DNA of 64,000 bases from Candidatus Gastranaerophilales bacterium (GCA_928722015.1 CAKMWI010000008.1:212837-276836); one strand, 5' to 3'. Shown: positions 34,459-46,972, counted from the stretch's first letter. Translations and numbers: made by a program. Notes: generated from the letters alone by a model not told the origin.

Positions 34459-36789
34459 TCAATAATTAAGACTTTTTAGTTCTTTCATTTTTAAACTTAA
34501 AATTTTATATTTTAATTTATAGTGGTCTCTTAGTTTCTTTTTAAATACTATTTTTTTTAAAAATGCGCATTTTATATATTCAATGAAAATTTTATGTTGA
34601 TTTTTTACTAGTTCTATTCGCCGGGTGTTTTCTGCAGTTTCGACATTCAAACGGTCCATTTGAGCAAAGAATAATTTATCATTTTCAGAAAAATTTTTGT
34701 CCTGACTATCTGATTCTATTGCATCTAACAACCATTTTTTTGACCTCATTATTTCTGAATTAAGTTCACTGAATCTGTTTGAGTAGTCAATATTGTTAAA
34801 TAAATCATTTCTTGAATATATTTCTTCTGATAATTTAAGTTGTCTGTTTTCTAATTTTACTGTTTTTAGTAATGTGTCTAATCTTGTATCAGTTTCTCCT
34901 ATTCGTGGAGATATAACAAAAAAGTTTTTATTAAATAATAGAGCAAAGCAAGTTCCATGGAATGAATCACCTACATAATAATCACAATTTTTAATATAAT
35001 ATAACCAGTCTTCAACAGGTAATTTCCCTTTCATGTTGACTGCTTTTAGTCCAAGTTTATTTGCGGTGTAGTTTATTGCTTTTTTCTTTGCTGGGGTCAT
35101 TGTGATGATATAATATGCCAAAAATTTGGAATCTTTTTTCTTAGATGTTTGAGCAATTTTTTCATATTTTTCTTTATTAATGTAAAAAACCGGATCCCAA
35201 ATTTGAGTACTATTTATGTTAAATGTGTTTTGTAGTATTTCTACTCCGCTGGTTTCTCTAACTGATATTGCATCAAATCTTTGCAGATATTTTCTCATAA
35301 TATTTTTGCTTCCTTCTTCACCATCATAAAAAGGAATTCCAAATGAAGCTGCACATGCTATTTTTTTTGCGTTATCATTTGCAAAATTTAGAAAATACTT
35401 GTCCCTGTGGTGATGAACACACCAATCTCTGAATACTTGGTCAGAACCAACAATAAATGTTCCTATATTTTTATTGAGATTTTTCAAATCAATGTAGTCT
35501 GCACAAAAATTTGTCGTTGTCAAAAATTCTTTTTCAAATTTTTCGCTGATACTATTTTTATGTAAACGTTTTTCTATGCGAGGGTAATAGTTTATGGTTT
35601 TAACATTGTATCCTTCTTCTTTTAAAAATTCATTTAGAGCATAGTTTGTAAGTATTGCTCCTCTGTTTGGTACATACCAAAAATTTAATATACCAATATT
35701 GTTTTGTTTTCCAAGTGTTTTTTCATACACCTCATTAAAAGACTTTTCTGATGCTATCAAATTATAAAATTTATCTCTTAGAGGATGAGCAGCAAATGGT
35801 TTCTGGCAGGCCCTTTGCATTGCATATTTAAGAGGAACTTGTTTTATAGTTTTAAGTTTTGTTGTTTTACAAATGTCGTTAAATATTCTTTCTCCATTAC
35901 TTGTATTAATTAGAAGTAGAGATGTTCCTAACTTATCGTCTAAATTTTTGTTGAATTTTTTAATGCCCAAAAAATCGGCTATAGTTATGTCTGATTGTCT
36001 TGGAAGTGTTGCAAATTTACAGTTTTCGCATGATTTGCTCATCGCAATTTTTGAATGGTAAATTTGCATGTATTTTTTATATAACTGTTTATTTTTTATT
36101 GTTTCAACTACAATTGAGGAGCAATTCCAACCTGAAAGTTTTTTGTCTCTAAAATTTATATCCGTTATTTTGTCATAAGTTTGTTCTACTTCATTGATAA
36201 ATTTTTGAAATACTTTCGGTGATGGTGAATATGTACAATAAATATCAACCAATAATAATTTGTCATATTTTTTATTCAAGTAGTGTTTTAATCCGGCAAC
36301 TTGACATGGACAACCTGAAAATAGTACATAATTTCCATTGTCTAAAAGATATTTTATCTGCTTGTATAAATTTTCAGAAATTTTACTTTGTACATATTTT
36401 GAGCCTCGTATTTTATGCAGCTCGTCAATTGTATCAATAATTATGTGTTCAACCATCCAATTTTTATTAAAAGCAGCTCCAACTACATATCCGTTGCGCT
36501 CAAAAATCCAATTCGCAAGTGCTGTAAAGGCCCCTCCGGAAGAACTTTGTATTCTTATATTGTCTTCATTCATCAAGGCATAGGCATCTGGCTGTTTTGT
36601 GTTTTCTTCTTTATAATTCAATATAGGGCAGCTTTTTTTGCATAACCCGCAGTTGGTGCATTTGTCTTCTTTTATCACAGACCTGTAATATCCATTTTTA
36701 TCTTGAACTATTTCAATTGCTCCATTTGGACAAACATTTGCGCATGCAGCGCAGCCTGTGCAGTAAATTTCGTCAATTATATATTTCAT
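34459..36789 (-). CDS. Fusion: 4Fe-4S dicluster + FrhB-like (coenzyme F420 hydrogenase beta-like) flavo/Fe-S domain + polysaccharide pyruvyl transferase
   Basis: The N-terminus CTGCAACANVCPNGAI...CTNCGLCKKSCP carries two ferredoxin motifs. The FrhB-like segment reads SSSGGAFTALANWIF...FSGCPCQVAGL. The C-terminal PS_pyruv_trans-like region reads VGSDQVFRDW...GDSFHGTCFALLFNKNF. Confidence 0.7.
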   Translation of the reverse strand: MKYIIDEIYCTGCAACANVCPNGAIEIVQDKNGYYRSVIKEDKCTNCGLCKKSCPILNYKEENTKQPDAYALMNEDNIRIQSSSGGAFTALANWIFERNGYVVGAAFNKNWMVEHIIIDTIDELHKIRGSKYVQSKISENLYKQIKYLLDNGNYVLFSGCPCQVAGLKHYLNKKYDKLLLVDIYCTYSPSPKVFQKFINEVEQTYDKITDINFRDKKLSGWNCSSIVVETIKNKQLYKKYMQIYHSKIAMSKSCENCKFATLPRQSDITIADFLGIKKFNKNLDDKLGTSLLLINTSNGERIFNDICKTTKLKTIKQVPLKYAMQRACQKPFAAHPLRDKFYNLIASEKSFNEVYEKTLGKQNNIGILNFWYVPNRGAILTNYALNEFLKEEGYNVKTINYYPRIEKRLHKNSISEKFEKEFLTTTNFCADYIDLKNLNKNIGTFIVGSDQVFRDWCVHHHRDKYFLNFANDNAKKIACAASFGIPFYDGEEGSKNIMRKYLQRFDAISVRETSGVEILQNTFNINSTQIWDPVFYINKEKYEKIAQTSKKKDSKFLAYYIITMTPAKKKAINYTANKLGLKAVNMKGKLPVEDWLYYIKNCDYYVGDSFHGTCFALLFNKNFFVISPRIGETDTRLDTLLKTVKLENRQLKLSEEIYSRNDLFNNIDYSNRFSELNSEIMRSKKWLLDAIESDSQDKNFSENDKLFFAQMDRLNVETAENTRRIELVKNQHKIFIEYIKCAFLKKIVFKKKLRDHYKLKYKILSLKMKELKSLNY

Positions 36790-37876
36790 TATTTATTTTC
36801 CTTTCGCTATTCTCAATTTCGTTTAGTATTTCATTTTTACAATCTTGGTATTTTATAACTTTTTCTAAATAATTTTTGTTATACATATTATTTATTGATG
36901 TCCAATAATACATGTTTTCTTCAAAACTTAAATCCGATTTAACTTTGAATAATCTATTCATTTCATTTTTTTGAGCTTCTTCAGTTATTGTTATGAATCT
37001 CATTGATTCGGGGTATAATATAATTTGGTTCTCAATTCCACATATTGTGATTAAGTCTGTAAATCCGGAACGTAAAGAAATATTTGCACTGCAAAGACTG
37101 GCAAAATAGCATTGTTGTGCTAATGGTAAGTATATTTTTTCAAAATTATTATATAATAATGTGTTGGTATTAAAGACAACTTTGTATCCGTGTGATTCCA
37201 GTTCTTTTCCAATTTTTATCCAAAATGAAGAACTTATTTCTTTTTCATCATACGAATTTGCATGAGGAGAAATCATTATTACTTTTTTGCCGTTAGAAAT
37301 TTTTTCAAAGAGGTTATTTACTTTTTGCTTTATTTCTGTAGGAAAGTTCGGAATTTCTAAGTCAACTTTATTTAAATTTAACATTTTGGCATAAACTTCA
37401 ACAAAATTTTCGGATTTGTTCGATTCTGCTTCATTGAATACATGATGCGATAGCTCATATAGCATTCCTTTTTGTAGTCCGTAAGTGTTATGGTCTTTTT
37501 CTACAATTGATTTGGTACAAGTTGCGTAGTAAATTTCTCTGGGAATTTTTATAGCTTTATCTGCAAAATTCAAGGAATGAATGAATTCAAGTTGATTTGC
37601 ATTTTTGTAAAAAATGAGTATTTTACCTCCATGTTCTTTTTTAAATTGTTTTAATAGTGAACAGCCTATGATAAAATCTCCCCATGGCCAAAAGGGAACA
37701 AAAATCCAATAGTCGGCATATTTTTTTTGTATTTCTTTTTTGAACATCTTGAGTGCTATTTTTGAAAAAGTCATATTGATTTTATTTCTTAAGTCAATAC
37801 GCTTTTTTCTGTTGGGAATAATAATATTTATGATACTTTTTAATATTTTGCTAATTATAATAATTGGGTAATACAT
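36773..37876 (-). CDS. GT9-family-like glycosyltransferase (heptosyltransferase-like), paralog of 41357-42484
   Basis: The N-terminal WGDFIIGCSLLKQFKKEHGG and C-terminal ISLRSGFTDLITICG resemble the GT9 LGDxI...LRAL and GNDSGPMHLA regions. It shares the ISLRSG(F/L) motif with the 375-aa ORF. Confidence 0.45.
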   Translation of the reverse strand: MYYPIIIISKILKSIINIIIPNRKKRIDLRNKINMTFSKIALKMFKKEIQKKYADYWIFVPFWPWGDFIIGCSLLKQFKKEHGGKILIFYKNANQLEFIHSLNFADKAIKIPREIYYATCTKSIVEKDHNTYGLQKGMLYELSHHVFNEAESNKSENFVEVYAKMLNLNKVDLEIPNFPTEIKQKVNNLFEKISNGKKVIMISPHANSYDEKEISSSFWIKIGKELESHGYKVVFNTNTLLYNNFEKIYLPLAQQCYFASLCSANISLRSGFTDLITICGIENQIILYPESMRFITITEEAQKNEMNRLFKVKSDLSFEENMYYWTSINNMYNKNYLEKVIKYQDCKNEILNEIENSERKINNEIYN

Positions 37877-37879
37877 AGC

Positions 37880-46363: not shown

Positions 46364-46366
46364 ATT

Positions 46367-46972
46367 TTAGTTTAACTGCTCCAATAATTTTTTTGTTCTT
46401 GCTGTTATTTCACTATAAGAGTCTGCTACTGTCAAATGTCGTCCGACACCTACTGCGAGCGCTCCTGCCTTGAGGTAACTTGAAACTTCTTCTAATTGAA
46501 CATTTCCCTGTGGAATAACTTTTAAAAATGGCATAGGCCTTAATAAGTTTTCGATATATTCAGCACCACCCATATCTGTAATAGGGTATATTTTAACAAT
46601 TGAAATCCTTGATTTCCAAGCATTATAAGCTTCATTTGCCGTTGTAGTTCCTGCTATGAAGGGTAATCGTTTATCCTTTGAAATTTTGAGTAAATTCGTT
46701 TGGAATATTGGTGAAGAAATAATTTTGGCACCTGAGTCAATTGCAGCTTGTGCTTGCATTGAAGTTATAATTCCTCCGGCACAAATAGTTGCTTCATTTG
46801 AAAGAGTCTTAATTGCATTAAAAATTTTTGGGGTCTCGACATTTATTTCCATGATATCAAGTCCGCCATCTATTAAGGCTCTTGCTGTACCTATTACTTC
46901 TTGTATGTCTGTACTTCTTATTATTGGAAATACTTTATTTTCTGAAAGTTTTTTAAATAAATTTATGTTCAT
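46367..46972 (-). CDS. KDPG/KHG aldolase (Eda family)
   Basis: VFPIIRS...MEINVETP...CAGGIIT...FIAGTTTANEA...VKIYPI...VIPQGNV aligns with the E. coli Eda blocks, including the Schiff-base Lys context. Confidence 0.7.
   Translation of the reverse strand: MNINLFKKLSENKVFPIIRSTDIQEVIGTARALIDGGLDIMEINVETPKIFNAIKTLSNEATICAGGIITSMQAQAAIDSGAKIISSPIFQTNLLKISKDKRLPFIAGTTTANEAYNAWKSRISIVKIYPITDMGGAEYIENLLRPMPFLKVIPQGNVQLEEVSSYLKAGALAVGVGRHLTVADSYSEITARTKKLLEQLN

Follow-up and report, generated by a model that had tools for sequence, protein, structure and literature searches.

The window analysed here, a 64,000-nucleotide stretch of DNA from a Candidatus Gastranaerophilales bacterium (GCA_928722015.1 CAKMWI010000008.1:212837-276836; positions counted from its first letter), has at 34459-46972 a cluster of eleven minus-strand genes that, on balance, probably encodes a cellular pathway for a nucleoside diphosphate (NDP)-activated pentofuranose. 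In this pathway a ribulose-phosphate 3-epimerase (Rpe)-like and a phosphomannose isomerase (PMI)-like enzyme would feed an AfhE/AfhF-type kinase, phosphatase and nucleotidyltransferase, and the pathway is accompanied by two proteins with the fold of glycosyltransferase family 9 (GT9), here called P5 and P10, a pyruvyl transferase fusion and an ABC exporter. A glycan made from an NDP-pentofuranose rather than from heptose is most likely. The first-pass annotation of this DNA had implied a heptose donor and had left five of the eleven genes uninterpreted (the nucleotidyltransferase-kinase fusion, the HAD phosphatase, the PMI-like and Rpe-like genes and the eda/pfkB pair), and the first four of these we regard as the key to the locus. 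The genes concerned, in the direction of transcription, are the following (aa, amino acids; ORF, open reading frame, further below).

42488-44272, minus strand: ABC exporter with fused transmembrane and nucleotide-binding domains (TMD-NBD), MsbA/HepA/PglK type, 594 aa; PF00664 and PF00005, TIGR02203 529 bits with a cutoff of 602
41357-42484, minus strand: P5, GT-B protein of GT9 fold with an N-terminal nine-strand beta domain, 375 aa; no family
39802-41355, minus strand: fusion of a sugar-1-phosphate nucleotidyltransferase (N-terminal, GGKGTRL) and an APH-fold kinase (C-terminal, HGDxxxxN), 517 aa, AfhE homolog; PF00483, weak PF01636
39459-39845, minus strand: minimal HAD phosphatase (DFDGT), 128 aa, AfhF/GmhB analog; weak HAD-family matches in Pfam and NCBIfam
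38544-39449, minus strand: aldose-ketose isomerase resembling type I phosphomannose isomerase, 301 aa; phmmer match to Bacillus subtilis PMI 1qwr with E 2.7e-35, TIGR00218 67 bits with a cutoff of 116
37880-38542, minus strand: ribulose-phosphate 3-epimerase family protein (Rpe/AlsE-like), 220 aa; PF00834 166 bits
36773-37876, minus strand: P10, GT-B protein of GT9 fold with an N-terminal amphipathic or hydrophobic helix, 367 aa; no family
34459-36789, minus strand: fusion of a 2x[4Fe-4S] ferredoxin, an FrhB/FdhB-like flavoprotein and a PS_pyruv_trans domain, 776 aa; PF00037, PF04422, PF04432 and PF04230 (126 bits)

What points to a pentofuranose? Phages possess a uridine diphosphate (UDP)-D-arabinofuranose pathway for arabinosyl-5-hydroxycytosine DNA, composed of an arabinose 5-phosphate (A5P) isomerase, AfhE and AfhF (PMC13326640). 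AfhE of phage HY126 is reported there as an Ara5P kinase and UDP-Ara pyrophosphorylase and AfhF as a Mg-dependent HAD phosphatase, with AfhE converting Araf5P to Araf-1,5-P2, AfhF taking off the 5-phosphate and AfhE then forming UDP-Araf; Serratia phage 92A1 is named as bearing arabinosylated 5-hydroxydeoxycytidine (5hodC) (PMC13326640). The 517-aa fusion of the window aligns with a protein of phage 92A1 at 28% identity and 96-97% coverage (E 9e-41), both proteins have the motifs GGxGTRL, HGDxxxxN and FIDxRGYFG, and the phage gene adjoins an annotated A5P isomerase gene. Full-length tblastn matches of the fusion occur in 350 phage records. The homolog in Synechococcus phage S-SRM01 is 34% identical, and the phosphatase located after it (labelled 3' phosphatase) is 56% identical to the HAD of the window, where the genes for fusion and HAD overlap at the end of the former. 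All cellular loci examined have the HAD behind the nucleotidyltransferase-kinase gene, and the catalytic motifs GGKGTRL, HGDxxxxN and DFDGT are all present in the window translations. Because the homology to phage AfhE and AfhF is full-length, the kinase, phosphatase and nucleotidyltransferase chemistry proposed for the locus rests on homology to a characterised system. This homology and the obligatory HAD partner were also the grounds for dropping an interpretation of the fusion as a LicC/LicA-type choline kinase/cytidylyltransferase or an AmgK/MurU-type salvage enzyme. The nucleotidyltransferase domain bears a weak resemblance to HddC (38 bits, cutoff 300). In S-SRM01 itself (L025, MW015081.1 190687-202174) the sugar isomerase (SIS)/fusion/HAD cassette lies amid genes for GDP-fucose synthesis, fucosyltransferases and GT2 enzymes and is not beside a hydroxycytosine synthase, so that the phage pathway may also serve a glycan rather than DNA modification.

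The cassette is not confined to one lineage. Homologs of the fusion number more than 2,300, and those labelled as Clostridiaceae, Butyrivibrio, Lachnospiraceae, Selenomonadaceae, Elusimicrobiaceae and Termitinemataceae are 55-64% identical to it. In all five of the loci L008, L009, L010, L026 and L027 the fusion is followed by a small HAD and accompanied by PMI-like and Rpe-like genes, and four of the five also have a PS_pyruv_trans gene. A variant is found in locus L005 and the Spirochaete locus L022, where fusion (46-47% identical) and HAD (51-52%) stand beside a SIS-CBS isomerase of KpsF/GutQ type, scoring 312 bits against TIGR00393 in L005, and where PMI, Rpe and pyruvyl transferase are all missing. 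Conversely, a SIS-type arabinose-5-phosphate isomerase was not found in the window, which has the PMI-like and Rpe-like genes instead. This replacement of PMI and Rpe by a KpsF/GutQ-family isomerase favours a pentose 5-phosphate as the most likely substrate, judging by homology. The PMI-like protein has the metal-ligand motifs QVHPD, ESWY and GTIHA and is 45-53% identical to cassette PMIs of Firmicute loci. The Rpe-like protein scores below the cutoffs of both the rpe equivalog (179 vs 213 bits) and AlsE (168 vs 271 bits) and is nearer to the cassette Rpes of other phyla (43-61% identity, 180-289 bits) than to Rpes of known structure (at most 131 bits). For both proteins, thus, likeness across phyla exceeds likeness to housekeeping enzymes of known structure, which suggests a dedicated Rpe/PMI subfamily, perhaps for an epimer other than arabinose. 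Literature searches for a cellular version of the cassette gave nothing relevant.

Two further features of cassette loci may be mentioned. The variant loci L005 (11135-12208) and L022 (7914-8987) share a conserved 357-aa protein (45% identity to each other) with an IDADDTM motif like the DxD of GT-A enzymes; the L005 copy has no match in NCBIfam, and the L022 copy none in Pfam or among PDB sequences. In L015 (14580-16739), and also in L016 and L021, an extra radical-SAM gene (327 aa) and a 377-aa ORF without Pfam match lie between the Rpe-like gene and the FrhB fusion, suggesting that the module is further modified in some lineages.

The pathway could be imagined as follows. The Rpe-like and PMI-like enzymes would convert a pentulose 5-phosphate (ribulose 5-phosphate, Ru5P, or xylulose 5-phosphate, Xu5P) into an aldopentofuranose 5-phosphate, for which D-lyxose-5-P, D-xylose-5-P or D-arabinose-5-P are possible. 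By analogy to the conversion of fructose-6-P to mannose-6-P, our own stereochemical reasoning would have the PMI-like enzyme form D-lyxose-5-P from Xu5P and D-arabinose-5-P from Ru5P. The C-terminal kinase domain of the fusion would then, like its homolog AfhE, phosphorylate O-1, the small HAD would take off the 5-phosphate (by homology to AfhF and analogy to GmhB), and the N-terminal nucleotidyltransferase domain would yield the NDP-pentofuranose, probably with UDP. Fold and strict gene co-occurrence suggest that P5 and P10 would move this sugar to a membrane-bound acceptor, for which the priming enzyme may be encoded outside the locus, in another part of the genome; the FrhB-pyruvyl-transferase fusion may add a pyruvate-derived group, and the MsbA-type exporter may flip or export the lipid-linked product. 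The sugar might end up in a secondary polymer linked to peptidoglycan, in a lipoglycan or capsule, or in lipopolysaccharide (LPS).

Are P5 and P10 GT9 enzymes, as had been proposed from their terminal motifs? Structure prediction and profile searches answer differently. AlphaFold2 models built from family alignments (predicted local distance difference test, pLDDT, of 88 for P10 and 91 for P5) have a GT-B fold, and in this model-based comparison GT9 structures are nearest to both. For P10 the fold matches score 19.2 with WaaF, 18.8 with the Veillonella GT9, 16.7 with WaaC, 15.8 with PnsB1 and 15.2 with TibC, the next fold reaching 11.7; for P5 the scores are 16.6, 16.3, 16.1, 14.1 and 13.7, the next fold reaching 10.7. 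In a viral structure library RfaF, Aah/TibC and GT9-annotated proteins rank first, and a 449-aa S-SRM01 protein is among the fold matches to P5. Against the Pfam GT9 profile PF01075, however, both proteins stay below the gathering threshold of 22 bits (P10 14.8 bits, E 0.018; P5 14.0 bits, E 0.031), with similar sub-threshold matches in 8 of 16 and 4 of 26 family members. The label GT9-like thus holds as a fold assignment; sequence-defined membership of GT9 and a heptose donor are not supported. The homology of the two was borne out by hhalign of their families (probability 97.4%, E 1.2e-11), plain BLASTP aligning them at 28% identity across 83 aa only.

Both families share an invariant [I/V]S[L/I]RSG motif. 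In a weak hhalign alignment of the P5 family (probability 13%) its Arg (ISLRSG; R298 in P5, R269 in P10) falls at the position of WaaC D261-T-G. With Escherichia coli WaaC the P5 family gave this weak C-terminal match only, and the P10 family an uninformative one (probability 0.7%). P10 has invariant W65-G66-D67 after the first strand and P5 invariant G113-E114; by position only, these may correspond to WaaC D13. The P5 family comprises 853 representatives at E<=1e-3 in a library of 1.84 billion proteins, some of them fused to GT2, GT8 or APH kinase domains.

The main basis for proposing P5 and P10 as the transferases for the NDP-sugar of the cassette is reciprocal co-occurrence. ORFs with the motif [IVL][SG][LIM]RSG[LF], detected with hidden Markov models (HMMs) of P5 and P10, lie beside the cassette in all five non-Gastranaerophilales loci chosen via the fusion, and fusion and HAD are present in all three chosen via P5 (L005, L022, L023). 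In two phage loci examined P5/P10 homologs are absent. Identity among Gastranaerophilales relatives is 70-82% for the cassette enzymes, against 42-51% for P5 and 27-54% for P10; fast divergence is typical of surface-glycan transferases.

The exporter also appears to belong to the module. As the first-pass annotation had it, a fused exporter of MsbA type (PF00664 and PF00005) takes the place of a Wzx flippase. Its best NCBIfam model is MsbA (TIGR02203, 528.8 bits vs 602; PRK11176, 439.6 vs 867), and with no curated model does it reach the cutoff. Exporters adjoining the module match it at 56% identity over the full length in the Spirochaete locus L022 and at 67% in L005, from another metagenomic lineage; the nearest relatives sampled for it have this module as their neighbour in other lineages. 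Roughly half of the Gastranaerophilales relatives (L004/L018, L014, L015, L016, L021) do not have it at the locus. The cross-phylum identity and this patchy presence argue for a module-associated exporter rather than a housekeeping MsbA.

Two PS_pyruv_trans proteins, expected from the earlier annotation, were recovered: CsaB (44400-45416) and the Fer4-FrhB-PS_pyruv_trans fusion (34459-36789). The pyruvyl transferases beside the cassette in L008 and L009 resemble the PS_pyruv_trans domain of the FrhB fusion, not CsaB. The fusion is optional in relatives and occurs both-or-neither with a gene for a 260-aa membrane protein (L004, L006, L011-L021), which suggests a functional pair. As a speculation, the redox domains of the fusion might act on an enolpyruvyl intermediate and turn it by reduction into a 1-carboxyethyl ether. 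Literature searches for an FrhB-pyruvyl-transferase fusion gave nothing relevant.

The remaining features at the two ends of the locus are these.

46367-46972, minus strand: 2-keto-3-deoxy-6-phosphogluconate/2-keto-4-hydroxyglutarate (KDPG/KHG) aldolase, Eda-like, 201 aa; Pfam PF01081 106 bits, NCBIfam eda subfamily below cutoffs
45416-46363, minus strand: PfkB-family sugar kinase resembling 2-keto-3-deoxygluconate (KDG) kinase, 315 aa; PF00294 154 bits, best NCBIfam matches to KDG/KDGal (2-keto-3-deoxygalactonate) kinases, all below cutoff
44400-45416, minus strand: CsaB-type polysaccharide pyruvyl transferase, 338 aa; TIGR03609 S_layer_CsaB equivalog 259.1 bits with a cutoff of 213.1, PF04230 137 bits
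44273-44399, minus strand: conserved intergenic region with a terminator-like hairpin at 44376-44351; terminator scan, nine related loci
33636-34418, minus strand: 260-aa membrane protein, a twelfth conserved gene; weak DUF2079 match only

The eleven co-directional ORFs were confirmed at their annotated coordinates in a window of about 31% G+C. The tiny gaps and overlaps described earlier were found at nine junctions and not at the tenth: from the eda end the distances are +3, -1, +127, +3, +1, -44, +9, +1, +3 and -17 nt, so that the 127-nt spacer between csaB and the ABC exporter gene is the sole exception to junctions that overlap or measure at most 9 nt. The terminator scan finds in this spacer a hairpin with an 11-bp stem, four GC pairs and a T-run (44376-44351). 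The hairpin after csaB (TTAGCC-N4-GGCTAA type) recurs with related sequence and fold in nine Gastranaerophilales loci, in most with a T-run after it, and downstream of it these loci have an invariant box, CATATTA[AG]AAT, and a GGGA. An Rfam search of the spacer matched no RNA family. The sequence downstream of csaB may combine a terminator with a promoter or operator behind it, and the spacer is the probable end of an eda-pfkB-csaB unit and start of a glycan unit. With this hairpin and conserved box the proposed single eleven-gene operon is unlikely; probably there are two transcription units, eda-pfkB-csaB (46972-44400) and a glycan unit of eight to nine genes (44272-33636). The 260-aa membrane protein gene probably belongs to the latter, since it is found only where the FrhB fusion is found. 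It ends the locus in most Gastranaerophilales relatives (53-55% identity), and a promoter-like site (34453-34425) lies ahead of it. For P5, gene callers choose a start five codons later, giving 370 instead of 375 aa. Upstream the locus is bounded by a divergent CHASE2 adenylate cyclase gene and downstream by a tRNA gene (33487-33573, plus strand; Rfam RF00005, 62 bits), directly after which stands another terminator-like hairpin (33580-33603).

Within the upstream unit eda and pfkB are separated by 3 nt and pfkB and csaB overlap by 1 nt, a coupling present in all Gastranaerophilales loci examined, and eda is about 80% identical in related Gastranaerophilales loci. We read eda-pfkB as a KDG-type catabolic pair translationally coupled to CsaB, the pyruvyl transferase responsible for the ligand of SLH-domain (S-layer homology) proteins in diderm Terrabacteria, with eda probably outside the glycan module. 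Both genes are absent from all non-Gastranaerophilales cassette loci examined. Participation of eda and pfkB in the glycan pathway, as supply of a 3-deoxy-D-manno-oct-2-ulosonic acid (Kdo)-like acid or of pyruvate, was considered and found unsupported, given this absence and their position upstream of the terminator. CsaB exceeds the curated TIGR03609 cutoff and its gene is directly upstream in 14 of 14 Gastranaerophilales loci examined. As the flanking genes for adenylate cyclase, YajQ and a patatin are just as syntenic, the adjacency is not taken as proof of function.

Beyond the locus, the earlier statement that a priming transferase, Wzx, Wzy, Wzz, GT2 and GT4 enzymes are lacking was upheld: neither in the cluster nor among ORFs of at least 150 aa in the whole 64 kb does Pfam match a phosphoglycosyltransferase or any of the others, with the limit that divergent Wzy-like membrane proteins could evade Pfam. 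GmhA, HldE and HldD, lpx genes, and an LCP ligase or TagO/WecA were likewise not found in the window. A UDP-N-acetylglucosamine (UDP-GlcNAc) 2-epimerase is encoded about 9 kb from the cluster (23832-24965, plus strand; PF02350, 343 bits); such enzymes make UDP-N-acetylmannosamine (UDP-ManNAc), the sugar pyruvylated by CsaB in Firmicute wall polymers. A weak fragment of an IS1595-type transposase (18537-19118, plus strand; PF12762, 21 bits, below cutoff) was also noted. Close relatives of the locus come only from metagenome-assembled genomes (MAGs) of Candidatus Gastranaerophilales/Melainabacteria, many of gut or faecal origin.

How do other explanations compare with a pentofuranose pathway? 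One of them keeps the cassette logic and changes the sugar: an AlsE-like epimerase acting on fructose-6-P or sedoheptulose-7-P would lead via altrose-6-P, allose-6-P or a glycero-altro-heptose-7-P to an NDP-hexose or NDP-heptose. The near-equal scores of the Rpe-like protein with AlsE and Rpe models (168 and 179 bits, respectively, neither reaching its cutoff), the hexose-phosphate isomerase 1qwr as nearest relative of the PMI-like protein, the heptose used by known GT9 relatives and the difficulty of justifying an own Rpe copy for Ru5P and Xu5P, which central metabolism supplies anyway, all speak in its favour. We nevertheless hold it to be unlikely, since kinase/pyrophosphorylase and phosphatase are homologous to enzymes acting on arabinofuranose phosphates and since a KpsF/GutQ-family (A5P) isomerase takes over from PMI and Rpe beside fusion and HAD proteins of 46-52% identity. 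Less probable still is the scheme in which P5 and P10, as analogs of WaaC and WaaF, transfer heptose, or some other sugar of the core, onto lipid A-core, with the exporter as the organism's MsbA and a pyruvylated lipooligosaccharide (LOS)-like core as product. The fold matches to WaaF and WaaC, MsbA_lipidA as top NCBIfam model of the exporter (529 bits), the identical isomerase/kinase/HAD/nucleotidyltransferase logic of the NDP-heptose pathway and the reported presence of lipid A genes in Gastranaerophilales (PMC4040986) would fit such a scheme. It has to contend, however, with an exporter that is under the 602-bit MsbA cutoff, missing in about half of the relatives and 56-67% identical to module-linked exporters elsewhere, with the occurrence of transferase family and cassette in monoderm Lachnospiraceae (Butyrivibrio) and of the module in a Spirochaete MAG, with the homology of the cassette to the UDP-arabinofuranose pathway and its KpsF-type variants, and, by a weak alignment, with an invariant Arg where WaaC has its heptose-binding Asp. 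Several Spirochaete genera are not known to possess classical LPS. Thus neither the heptose donor implied earlier nor decoration of a LOS core by way of a housekeeping MsbA is borne out. The O-heptosylation of a secreted adhesin by TibC/AAH-type enzymes, for which the 1270-aa protein at 5968-9780 (minus strand) had been suggested as acceptor, fared worst and is very improbable. The known TibC enzymes among the fold matches lend it what plausibility it has; TibC ranks behind GT9 enzymes with lipid acceptors, GT2 and GT8 domains of polysaccharide type are frequent fusion partners of the family, an ABC exporter together with pyruvyl transferases suggests a glycan carried on a lipid, and the candidate acceptor, which has no Pfam match at E<=0.001, lies 25 kb off with no link to the locus.

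A further explanation concerns the destination of the glycan. The glycan unit could build a peptidoglycan-linked secondary polymer that, pyruvylated by CsaB and/or the FrhB fusion, serves as ligand for the S-layer homology (SLH) domains of OmpM/SomA porins. CsaB, SLH and OmpM form an outer-membrane tether in diderm Terrabacteria, CsaB and SLH co-occur, and Melainabacteria have SomA/OmpM-type SLH porin homologs (PMC4040986, 10.1101/2021.05.31.446380). A CsaB equivalog directly upstream in all 14 Gastranaerophilales loci and PS_pyruv_trans genes next to PMI/Rpe-type cassettes of other phyla would agree with this. On the other side stand the equal synteny of adenylate cyclase, YajQ and patatin genes, which makes the adjacency a weak argument, the hairpin between csaB and the glycan unit, the presence of the module in a Spirochaete and in loci that resemble capsule clusters and have KpsC/KpsS-type genes, and the lack of an LCP ligase or TagO/WecA in the window, so that we consider a wall polymer possible and rather unlikely. 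Combining several of these elements, it could be proposed, as a bolder idea that is doubtful in its entirety, that the RSG-motif family consists of NDP-pentofuranosyltransferases found across phyla with D-lyxo- or D-xylofuranose as donor sugar, that the cassette is the cellular counterpart or source of the phage pathway, and that the pyruvylated product is the peptidoglycan-linked ligand of the SLH-porin tether.

The pentofuranose pathway itself meets several objections. The 28% identity to the phage AfhE-type protein backs the chemistry and would not settle the substrate, and the PMI-like/Rpe-like pair could use hexulose-6-P or sedoheptulose-7-P. P5 and P10 fail the Pfam GT9 threshold, leaving their transferase role putative, and the alignment that puts an Arg at WaaC D261 is weak (hhalign probability 13%). 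Acceptor, priming enzyme and ligase were not found, and the glycan on a lipid carrier is an assumption. The conserved csaB adjacency, treated here as mere synteny, could reflect a functional link, and read-through from csaB is possible, the terminator being a pattern match.

In bacteria, D-pentofuranose glycans are generally regarded as drawing for the most part on donors that are lipid-linked or derived from phosphoribosyl pyrophosphate (PRPP). A nucleotide-sugar route via isomerase, 1-kinase, 5-phosphatase and pyrophosphorylase was described very recently, and for the modification of phage DNA alone. The comparisons made here indicate that the AfhE/AfhF-type pair occurs widely in the glycan loci of bacteria from gut and rumen, across several phyla, has an alternative feeder branch (Rpe-like plus PMI-like) and is, in the loci examined, consistently paired with an unannotated GT9-fold family of about 850 sequence clusters. 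This gives a family of hypothetical proteins a testable function and suggests a cellular origin for the phage anti-restriction pathway. For Gastranaerophilales, a human-gut lineage for which we know of no envelope-glycan chemistry, the product is a candidate surface antigen or wall polymer. Since among cultured bacteria at least Butyrivibrio sp. AE3004 carries the cassette, the predictions are directly testable.

Among known systems the phage UDP-D-arabinofuranose pathway (HY126, RB69, DLP3, 92A1; PMC13326640) is closest, with the same fusion of N-terminal nucleotidyltransferase and C-terminal kinase followed by a minimal HAD (28-34% and 56% identical to the window proteins, respectively) and the same logic of aldose-5-P to 1,5-bisphosphate to 1-phosphate to NDP-sugar. 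It differs in being viral and in using a SIS-type A5P isomerase, whereas the locus is cellular, is fed by Rpe-like and PMI-like enzymes and may activate a lyxose or xylose epimer; moreover, the phage product goes to GT4-like DNA arabinosyltransferases and that of the locus would go to GT9-fold transferases and an ABC exporter, i.e., into a glycan. The NDP-heptose pathway (GmhA, HddA/HldE, GmhB, HddC/HldE) follows the same four steps with non-orthologous enzymes, the locus having a PMI cupin in place of SIS, an APH-fold kinase in place of GHMP/PfkB, another minimal HAD and an additional 3-epimerase; SIS isomerase, GHMP and RfaE kinase domains were not found in it. With GT9 proteins of PF01075 (WaaC, WaaF, Veillonella 3tov, TibC/AAH) P5 and P10 share a C-terminal x-S/T-G and, judging by position, may share an N-terminal G-D/E at the start of the first helix, but P5 has an extra N-terminal beta domain, P10 an N-terminal helix, and both, in the weak alignment, an Arg for the Asp of D(S/T)G; they are linked to a pentofuranose-type cassette, not to ADP-heptose genes, and occur also in monoderms. 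The known target of CsaB is ManNAc on a TagO/TagA-primed polymer, whereas TagO/TagA are not found near this locus and a hairpin separates csaB from the glycan unit. Wzx/Wzy-dependent loci contain an initiating phosphoglycosyltransferase, Wzx, Wzy and Wzz, none of which Pfam matches in window ORFs of at least 150 aa. MsbA, PglK, cyanobacterial HepA and NdvA/ChvA have the same TMD-NBD fusion as the exporter, which scores high with MsbA and HepA models and is placed where a flippase would be expected in a Wzx-less locus, but which differs from them in forming a cross-phylum group of its own that travels with the module.

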